This document shows, one piece after another, positions 15,116-15,158 of a stretch of DNA of 42,376 nt (positions are counted from its first letter, which is position 1; every line of letters starts with the position of its first letter). Under the pieces are notes generated by a model, which was not told the DNA's origin, searched no databases, and saw nothing but the letters and a program-made list of their open reading frames with translations. The DNA lies in the IMG/VR virus record IMGVR_UViG_2778261452_000001; one strand, given 5' to 3'. The position numbers were made by a program, and so were the translations under genes. Source of the DNA: a virus (Duplodnaviria; Heunggongvirae; Uroviricota; Caudoviricetes).

Positions 15116-15158
15116 TGGCCAACAACTCACAGCGGATTACACTGGGAGTTGTTGGCCA
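15116..15158. repeat. 13-bp perfect inverted repeat TGGCCAACAACTC-N17-GAGTTGTTGGCCA in coi-c1 intercistronic region
   Basis: Read directly; arms at 15116-15128 and 15146-15158. Confidence 0.5.

Follow-up and report, generated by a model that had tools for sequence, protein, structure and literature searches.

A conserved RNA hairpin beside the Pc1 promoter in the c1 leader of phage P1 and its possible role in promoter-dependent repressor expression

The stretch of DNA analysed here, referred to as the window (42,376 nt), contains the immunity region immC of P1-like phages. By megablast, the immC regions of phages P1, P7, phiW39 and SJ46 match it with 99.3-100% identity (99.8-100% for P1, phiW39 and SJ46), and 708 PLSDB records match the immC segment. 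The list of open reading frames places a 283-aa ORF at 14242-15093 and a 69-aa ORF at 15204-15413, both on the minus strand, and Cre at 16247-17278 on the plus strand. Window coordinates equal the locus coordinates of the annotated P1 record AF234172 plus 13999, and due to this match the two minus-strand ORFs can be identified as c1, coding for the 283-aa repressor, and coi, coding for the 69-aa C1 inactivator, whose stop codon lies at 15204-15206. According to the annotation of AF234172, the sigma-70 promoter Pc1 (formerly P99a) is located on the minus strand with its -10 box, TATAAT, at 15161-15166 and its -35 box, TCTATT, at 15185-15190, the latter inside Oc1ab (15177-15204), a bivalent C1 operator that controls Pc1 and was also found by an operator consensus search. 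Further upstream on the same strand lies the promoter P1coi (formerly P99d; 15645-15674), from which imcA-imcB-coi(-c1) read-through originates (PMC8546580). Both P1coi and Pc1 drive c1, and P1coi alone drives coi (PMC8546580). The ribosome-binding region of c1 (15090-15105, minus strand) is made up of the SD sequence GGAGGAGGA at 15097-15105 and the AUG at 15091-15093. Just upstream of the coi start, at 15426-15442, we also noted the near-palindrome CTGTATTGACAACACAG, which resembles a LexA box but has the spacing CTG-N11-CAG and not N10.

Between the coi stop codon and the c1 SD, and hence in the c1 leader where the initial annotation had placed it, we find a perfect 13-bp inverted repeat, consisting of TGGCCAACAACTC at 15116-15128 and its exact reverse complement at 15146-15158 with a spacer of 17 nt. 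The repeat can be extended to arms of 17 nt with one mismatch (94% complementarity), which are separated by 9 nt. A perfect stem of this length had been judged unlikely to occur by chance, and our results agree with this: a perfect repeat of at least 13 bp with a loop of at most 40 nt was present in only 8 of 300 dinucleotide-shuffled windows (mean 0.033), and the hairpin segment folds with a dG of -31.5 kcal/mol and a z-score of -7.9. The real window contains two such repeats, the one in the c1 leader and loxP (15795-15828), a known site with the structure ATAACTTCGTATA-N8-TATACGAAGTTAT. In c1-sense RNA, the hairpin (15116-15158, minus strand) is composed of a 5' arm at 15146-15158, a 3' arm at 15116-15128 and an apical part at 15129-15145. 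Its 19-bp stem contains 14 bp, one of them G-U, followed by a 1x1 C.U mismatch (C15145.U15129), a 5-bp helix and the 5-nt loop UAAUC (15135-15139), and an extra basal G-U pair (15159.15115) is predicted. The complete 136-nt c1 leader has a folding z-score of -5.55. No other copies or complements of the hairpin arm were detected in the window beyond a chance-level match with two mismatches at 38136, and a scan of 14000-16300 on both strands with Rfam covariance models (E<=1) gave no match. A stem-loop between coi and c1 is not annotated in the P1, P7, phiW39, RCS47 and JL22 records that were inspected. Neither the hairpin nor the Pc1 start point was found in the literature searched; the older original publications on P1 immC and the 2004 paper on the genome may contain an earlier mention of the dyad symmetry.

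For a comparison of c1 loci, we used phage records, PLSDB, IMG/VR, GTDB genomes and contigs encoding divergent C1 proteins. A hairpin is present at the same position in eight lineages whose C1 proteins are 71-100% identical to that of the window, namely the P1 type, the JL22/RCS47 type, the Cronobacter JK004/Klebsiella type, three Salmonella types and two metagenomic types, and its sequence is wholly different from one lineage to the next. All eight share a common layout, in which a conserved operator and an invariant TATAAT are followed by 0-3 nt, a stem of 15-19 bp, 16-23 nt containing GGAG, and the start codon. The individual hairpins also fold on their own, with dG values of -22 to -31.5 kcal/mol and z-scores of -2.6 to -8.1. 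From a MAFFT alignment of 18 distinct leaders, which was based on sequence only, RNAalifold recovered two helices, the hairpin stem and an outer helix. In this alignment, 87% of the cells of the proposed structure are paired, as compared to 38-53% after a shift of the partners by 1-3 columns, the score for covariation is 0.423 (at most 0.163 for shifted partners), and double-sided changes are found in 11 of the 18 stem pairs; the observed values were reached in none of 500 shuffles. Compensatory changes affect 13 of 18 stem pairs in a covariance-model alignment of 23 leaders, which leans towards the structure because it was fitted to the model. Several natural singleton variants break one stem pair each, and one variant alters the anti-SD segment that forms part of the outer helix. 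The inverted repeat is thus a real, conserved, cis-acting RNA hairpin of the P1 c1 leader. Among the records collected, two GTDB contigs binned as 'MAG: Bacillota bacterium' (L007 and L010) carry a c1 gene 99-100% identical to that of P1 and most likely represent mis-binned enterobacterial phage-plasmid DNA. The record of Salmonella phage SJ1 (L006, OQ595196), in which CDSs abut without intergenic DNA and c1 is fused directly behind another ORF, looks like an assembly artefact or an engineered construct and was left out of the c1 locus comparison as an artefactual concatenation.

The stems are not equivalent when read on the two strands. They contain 1-4 G-U pairs each in the c1 sense and 0-1 in the antisense direction (about 20 versus 2 altogether), and in 8 of 9 representatives the antisense fold is weaker than the c1-sense fold. 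Such a difference between the strands points to selection on the c1-sense RNA and speaks against a protein-binding site in duplex DNA or an arm-to-arm correction of a palindrome. Judging from the sequence comparison, the hairpin is under selection as an RNA structure on the c1-sense strand. The initial annotation had also suggested that the repeat could be a protein-binding site, and one might indeed consider a double-stranded DNA site for a dimeric protein (an operator, a recombinase site or another), or a palindrome that is kept by template-switch repair, since the 13-bp arms are perfect and have the length seen in loxP, and a protein bound to the repeat, at +1 to +40 of Pc1, would obstruct transcription. 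However, the arms differ wholly between phages that have identical C1 proteins and Coi proteins differing by one residue, the lengths of the spacer and loop as well as bulges and mismatches vary, and the remaining mismatches are of the G-U kind when read in the c1 sense, an outcome that neither selection on duplex DNA nor arm-to-arm conversion would produce. When the window was searched with the asymmetric 17-bp C1 operator consensus ATTGCTCTAATAAATTT, allowing up to three mismatches, eight sites were found, the nearest at 15188-15204 and none within 15116-15158; the annotated operators also lie elsewhere, and we reject a C1 operator. A lox-like recombination site was likewise rejected, as the arms show no relation to loxP and lack conservation even among phages that share the cre/lox region. 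Taken together, the missing conservation of the arms, the missing operator match and the G-U strand asymmetry led us to reject an operator, a recombinase site or any other DNA site, and we regard such a function as highly improbable.

The hairpin is confined to the coi-bearing clade, because the leaders of a distant C1 clade (53-59% identity, without coi) fold no better than shuffled sequences, with z-scores of about -1. Consistent with this, matches to a covariance model of the element (R1) were obtained only in c1 leaders, with none elsewhere in the window and none in the distant clade. The members of this distant clade (L011 and L099-L102, from Pantoea and metagenomes) possess a palindromic operator, CTCTAAAAAAA..TTTTTTAGAG, a TACTAT that replaces TATAAT and a divergent HTH gene. 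In L099-L101, a 99-aa ORF is found where coi would be. The surroundings of the TACTAT are partly complementary to the SD/start region of c1.

The initial annotation described the element as intercistronic and overlooked that, according to the P1 annotation, Pc1 is located between coi and the hairpin, with its -10 box abutting the stem. Due to this arrangement, the element is intercistronic only in P1coi read-through RNA, and forms the extreme 5' end of Pc1 transcripts. The alignments show that the TATAAT of Pc1 is invariant in all hairpin-bearing lineages and that the stem begins 0-3 nt downstream of it. Transcription from sigma-70 promoters starts about 7 nt past the -10 box. As the stem already starts at the first to fourth nucleotide after the -10 box, Pc1 transcripts are predicted to begin inside the 5' arm; by standard sigma-70 geometry, the start points would be the fifth to eighth nucleotides (15153-15156, minus strand), with C15154 and A15153 as the likeliest. 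When 5' ends were modelled with starts at the sixth to eighth nucleotide, as suggested by this geometry, 0-2 nt remained unpaired in nearly all lineages, the exception being one alternative fold in the JL22 type. Nucleotides 1-6 after the -10 box pair with the distal 3' arm in every lineage and do so with sequences that differ per lineage, examples of the pairing nucleotides between the -10 box and the start being GGUGGC, AUAGGU and GAUAUG. The outer stems of the three Salmonella types are UGUAU/AUACA, UAUAA/UUAUA and GUAUAC/GUAUAC. Pairs upstream of the predicted Pc1 start could only be formed in RNA that was started upstream, that is, in P1coi read-through transcripts.

A stem at this position might act as an attenuator or terminator limiting read-through from coi into c1, which was one of the functions initially suggested for the repeat. 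The stem is strong and contains GC pairs, and a U-run follows within a few nucleotides in one lineage (L097) and, weakly, in JK004. In P1, however, the stem is followed by UGUCAAUUCUGG, most lineages are without a U-tract, and c1 has been treated as being expressed from P1coi as well (PMC8546580). The hairpin was also not reported by a terminator scan of 14900-15800. The only terminator-like match in this region, at 15365-15384 on the minus strand, is located inside coi, overlaps the annotated C1 operator Oc1c and is probably a by-product of the operator sequence. Since there is no U-tract after the P1 stem and the terminator scan was negative, attenuation was not supported and we rejected the terminator, for which we see hardly any chance. 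A scan with the promoter consensus gave no strict sigma-70 match on either strand, and a TTGACA at 15110-15115 (plus strand) is thus without a usable -10 box.

The outer helix connects the Pc1 spacer with the ribosome-binding region of c1. Its 5' partner, the anti-SD segment UCGUUG-G-AUCCUUCU (15166-15180, minus strand), is part of the Pc1 spacer directly 5' of UAUAAU and is only present in P1coi transcripts. In the minimum free energy (MFE) structure of the long RNA, it pairs with AGGAGGAU-CAAUGA, which covers the c1 SD and start codon (15090-15103), resulting in a 14-bp helix that closes over the hairpin. The anti-SD core AUCC[U/C][U/C] is kept at this position in 8/8 lineages, and the anti-SD:SD pairing is seen in the long-RNA MFE of every correctly folded lineage, the long fold of L092 having used the wrong TATAAT. 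Across lineages, 97-98% of the outer helix is paired in the MAFFT and covariance-model alignments. In all nine representatives, opening of the RBS (-13 to +3) is predicted to cost 8.4-13.4 kcal/mol when the RNA is long, versus 3.8-5.8 kcal/mol when it is short and begins at the predicted Pc1 start. Masking of the RBS by the native upstream sequence exceeds the mean obtained with shuffled upstream sequences in 9/9 cases; in six of them, at most 15 of 200 shuffles reach the native value, and in three lineages about 20% of the shuffles mask the RBS as well as the native upstream sequence. The outer helix contains only one double change and is almost without covariation because the SD core is invariant, and its conservation could instead stem from promoter or spacer constraints. 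In two JL22-type variants (L010 and L166), the anti-SD is changed from GATCCCTCTATAAT to GATCACTTTATAAT and the SD is unchanged, which provides a natural test case for the masking model.

From this arrangement we infer that the hairpin, by straddling the Pc1 start point, may make the translation or stability of c1 mRNA dependent on the promoter, a model that we put forward tentatively and to which we give a little less than an even chance. In this model, c1 mRNA would exist in two kinds with different 5' architectures, as the stem straddles the predicted start point. The Pc1 transcript would start in the 5' arm and carry a truncated 5'-terminal hairpin of ~13 bp with a base-paired 5' end. It would be without the anti-SD segment and all upstream sequence, leaving the SD and AUG 16-23 nt downstream free, and might therefore represent a stable, well-translated repressor message in the lysogen. 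The imcAB-coi-c1 read-through transcript from P1coi, on the other hand, would contain the full 19-bp stem and the pyrimidine run AUCCUUCU (together with UCGUUG), which would bridge the hairpin base by pairing with the SD and AUG of c1 and thereby mask the ribosome site; the full-length stem in this RNA may also be a substrate for RNase III. The read-through message would then yield Coi but little C1, and the element would set the C1:Coi ratio by the promoter of origin. It had been speculated at the outset that the repeat is an RNA element modulating the synthesis of the repressor relative to coi. The covariation and the c1-sense G-U asymmetry speak for the RNA part of this proposal, and the tuning is what the promoter-dependent model would predict.

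The retention of the long stem needs to be considered separately from masking. When the hairpin is scrambled, the predicted masking drops by only 0.7-3 kcal/mol, and masking alone hence leaves the retention of the long stem unexplained. For the same reason, we rejected the idea that the hairpin is needed as a clamp to join the anti-SD and SD segments, a function to which it would make a minor contribution at most. Another reader of the full stem could be RNase III, an enzyme that recognizes the length of a helix and not its sequence. RNase III might cut the full stem of ~19-20 bp in the coi-c1 read-through RNA, while the truncated stem of Pc1 transcripts escapes, and cleavage would separate the coi and c1 messages and alter the stability or translation of c1. 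Such a role would account for a stem that is kept at 15-19 bp (-22 to -31.5 kcal/mol) with a sequence free to vary and for the maintenance of pairs that involve nucleotides too far upstream to belong to any Pc1 transcript, and the small contribution of the hairpin to the modelled RBS masking calls for another reader of the full stem. Against this, the stems are rather short for RNase III, and their internal loops or bulges vary in position; comprising 15-19 bp, of which 1-4 are G-U, and interrupted by a 1x1 loop or bulges, they are at the lower limit of the roughly two turns of mostly Watson-Crick double-stranded RNA. We consider a processing site unlikely as a reading of its own, but a serious rival of, or complement to, the promoter-dependent model, as masking alone does not explain the conserved full-length stem; the two are compatible and overlap in part, and cleavage would work in the same direction by uncoupling or destabilizing the c1 portion of the RNA.

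The same stem can be viewed from the side of the Pc1 transcript, in which it might solely be a 5'-terminal stabilizer or insulator and the anti-SD complementarity would be incidental. The paired 5' end would in this case shield the weakly transcribed, autoregulated c1 message from RppH and RNase E and keep the RBS from pairing with upstream sequence. This would fit with the fixed position of the hairpin relative to the -10 box, its distance of 16-23 nt from the start codon, which is outside of the ribosome footprint, the predicted 5' ends with 0-2 unpaired nt and the outer helix without covariation. However, the base of the stem includes 3-6 nt that precede the canonical start and have complementary partners specific to each lineage, which a stabilizer does not need, and the stems are far longer and stronger than known stabilizers require. 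We therefore find it doubtful that stabilization is the entire function of the element.

The hairpin also coincides with a hotspot of divergence. The window and the JL22/RCS47 type (L003), which have identical C1 proteins, differ at 50 positions in 1512 nt, and half of these (25) are found within 15119-15228, where 19 affect the hairpin, 3 the Pc1 spacer and 3 the 3' end of coi. The hairpin hence differs at 19 of 42 positions, and its flanks at about 2%. The same segment contains a Pro-to-Leu change close to the C-terminus of Coi. The likeliest explanation is a recombination patch of ~110 nt (15119-15228) that was acquired from a divergent relative and in which divergence is visible only at unconstrained positions; accelerated or diversifying evolution of the stem is a less likely cause. 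One might also speculate that the stem is a fast-diversifying specificity cassette, in which the fold is kept and the sequence is read by a trans-acting RNA, by host defence directed against RNA or palindromic DNA or when co-resident P1-like plasmids compete, so that lineages would be selected to change the stem sequence yet keep a fold that tunes C1:Coi. The recombination patch is more parsimonious, and we regard the cassette, including this selection for change, as very improbable.

P1, a classic model, is the prototype of a phage-plasmid family that is very common, and its choice between lysis and lysogeny is thought to hinge on the balance of C1 and Coi. In a recent quantitative treatment of this balance, 'free c1' was computed as c1 mRNA minus coi mRNA (PMC8546580), a calculation which implicitly takes the translation of c1 as equal from both transcripts. 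If the c1 part of the read-through RNA is indeed masked or processed and that of the Pc1 RNA is open, P1coi would in effect act as an anti-repressor promoter, and efficient repressor synthesis would depend on Pc1 alone. The modelling of the switch should then change, and a simple, testable post-transcriptional layer would be added to immC.

A control layer at the RNA level has a precedent within the immunity circuit of P1 and P7 in the form of the c4 antisense RNA of immI (PMC8198154, PMC8546580). The c4 RNA is a trans-acting, processed antisense RNA of another immunity region, whereas the immC hairpin acts in cis and has no detectable partner elsewhere in the window. Known RNase III sites are found in the lambda N leader and, as R1.1-type sites, in T7. 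The T7 sites are also mentioned in PMC11707656. Similar to the P1 hairpin, these sites are stems of ~20 bp with an internal mismatch, located between cistrons or ahead of an RBS, in which the structure is kept and the sequence is not; the putative P1-type sites differ from them in their stem length of 15-19 bp and the variable position of the internal loop. A stabilizing stem-loop is reportedly present in the 5' UTR of ompA. The P1 hairpin would resemble it in its location 0-2 nt from the predicted 5' end and upstream of the ribosome footprint and in the unimportance of its sequence, but has a longer stem that continues upstream of the predicted start, and stabilization in P1 is a prediction. 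In phage lambda, cI is translated poorly from the leaderless maintenance transcript, and a good RBS is found on the establishment transcript. The expression of lambda cI from PRE and PRM is similar to that proposed for P1 c1 in that one repressor gene is read from two promoters, giving mRNAs with different 5' ends and translation efficiencies; for P1, the predicted polarity is reversed and the mechanism is RNA secondary structure. The predicted logic corresponds to that of the phage T4 genes e (lysozyme), soc and 49, for which RBS-masking hairpins with an embedded promoter have reportedly been described. In these T4 genes, the RBS is hidden in the early read-through RNA, and translatable RNA comes from a late promoter that lies within the masking structure. 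As in T4, the long P1 RNA is predicted to pair an upstream segment with the SD and AUG, which we found in silico, and the second promoter lies between the two partners, as the annotated -10 box of Pc1 (15161-15166) is located between the SD and the anti-SD segment in the Pc1 spacer, with the start predicted downstream of the latter. The T4 masking helix is a simple hairpin, whereas in P1 a separately conserved hairpin of 15-19 bp is nested inside the helix and straddles the predicted start point. In addition, the T4 switch is temporal, separating early from late expression, whereas the P1 gene codes for the repressor of lysogeny, is co-transcribed with its own inactivator and is predicted to be translated differentially.
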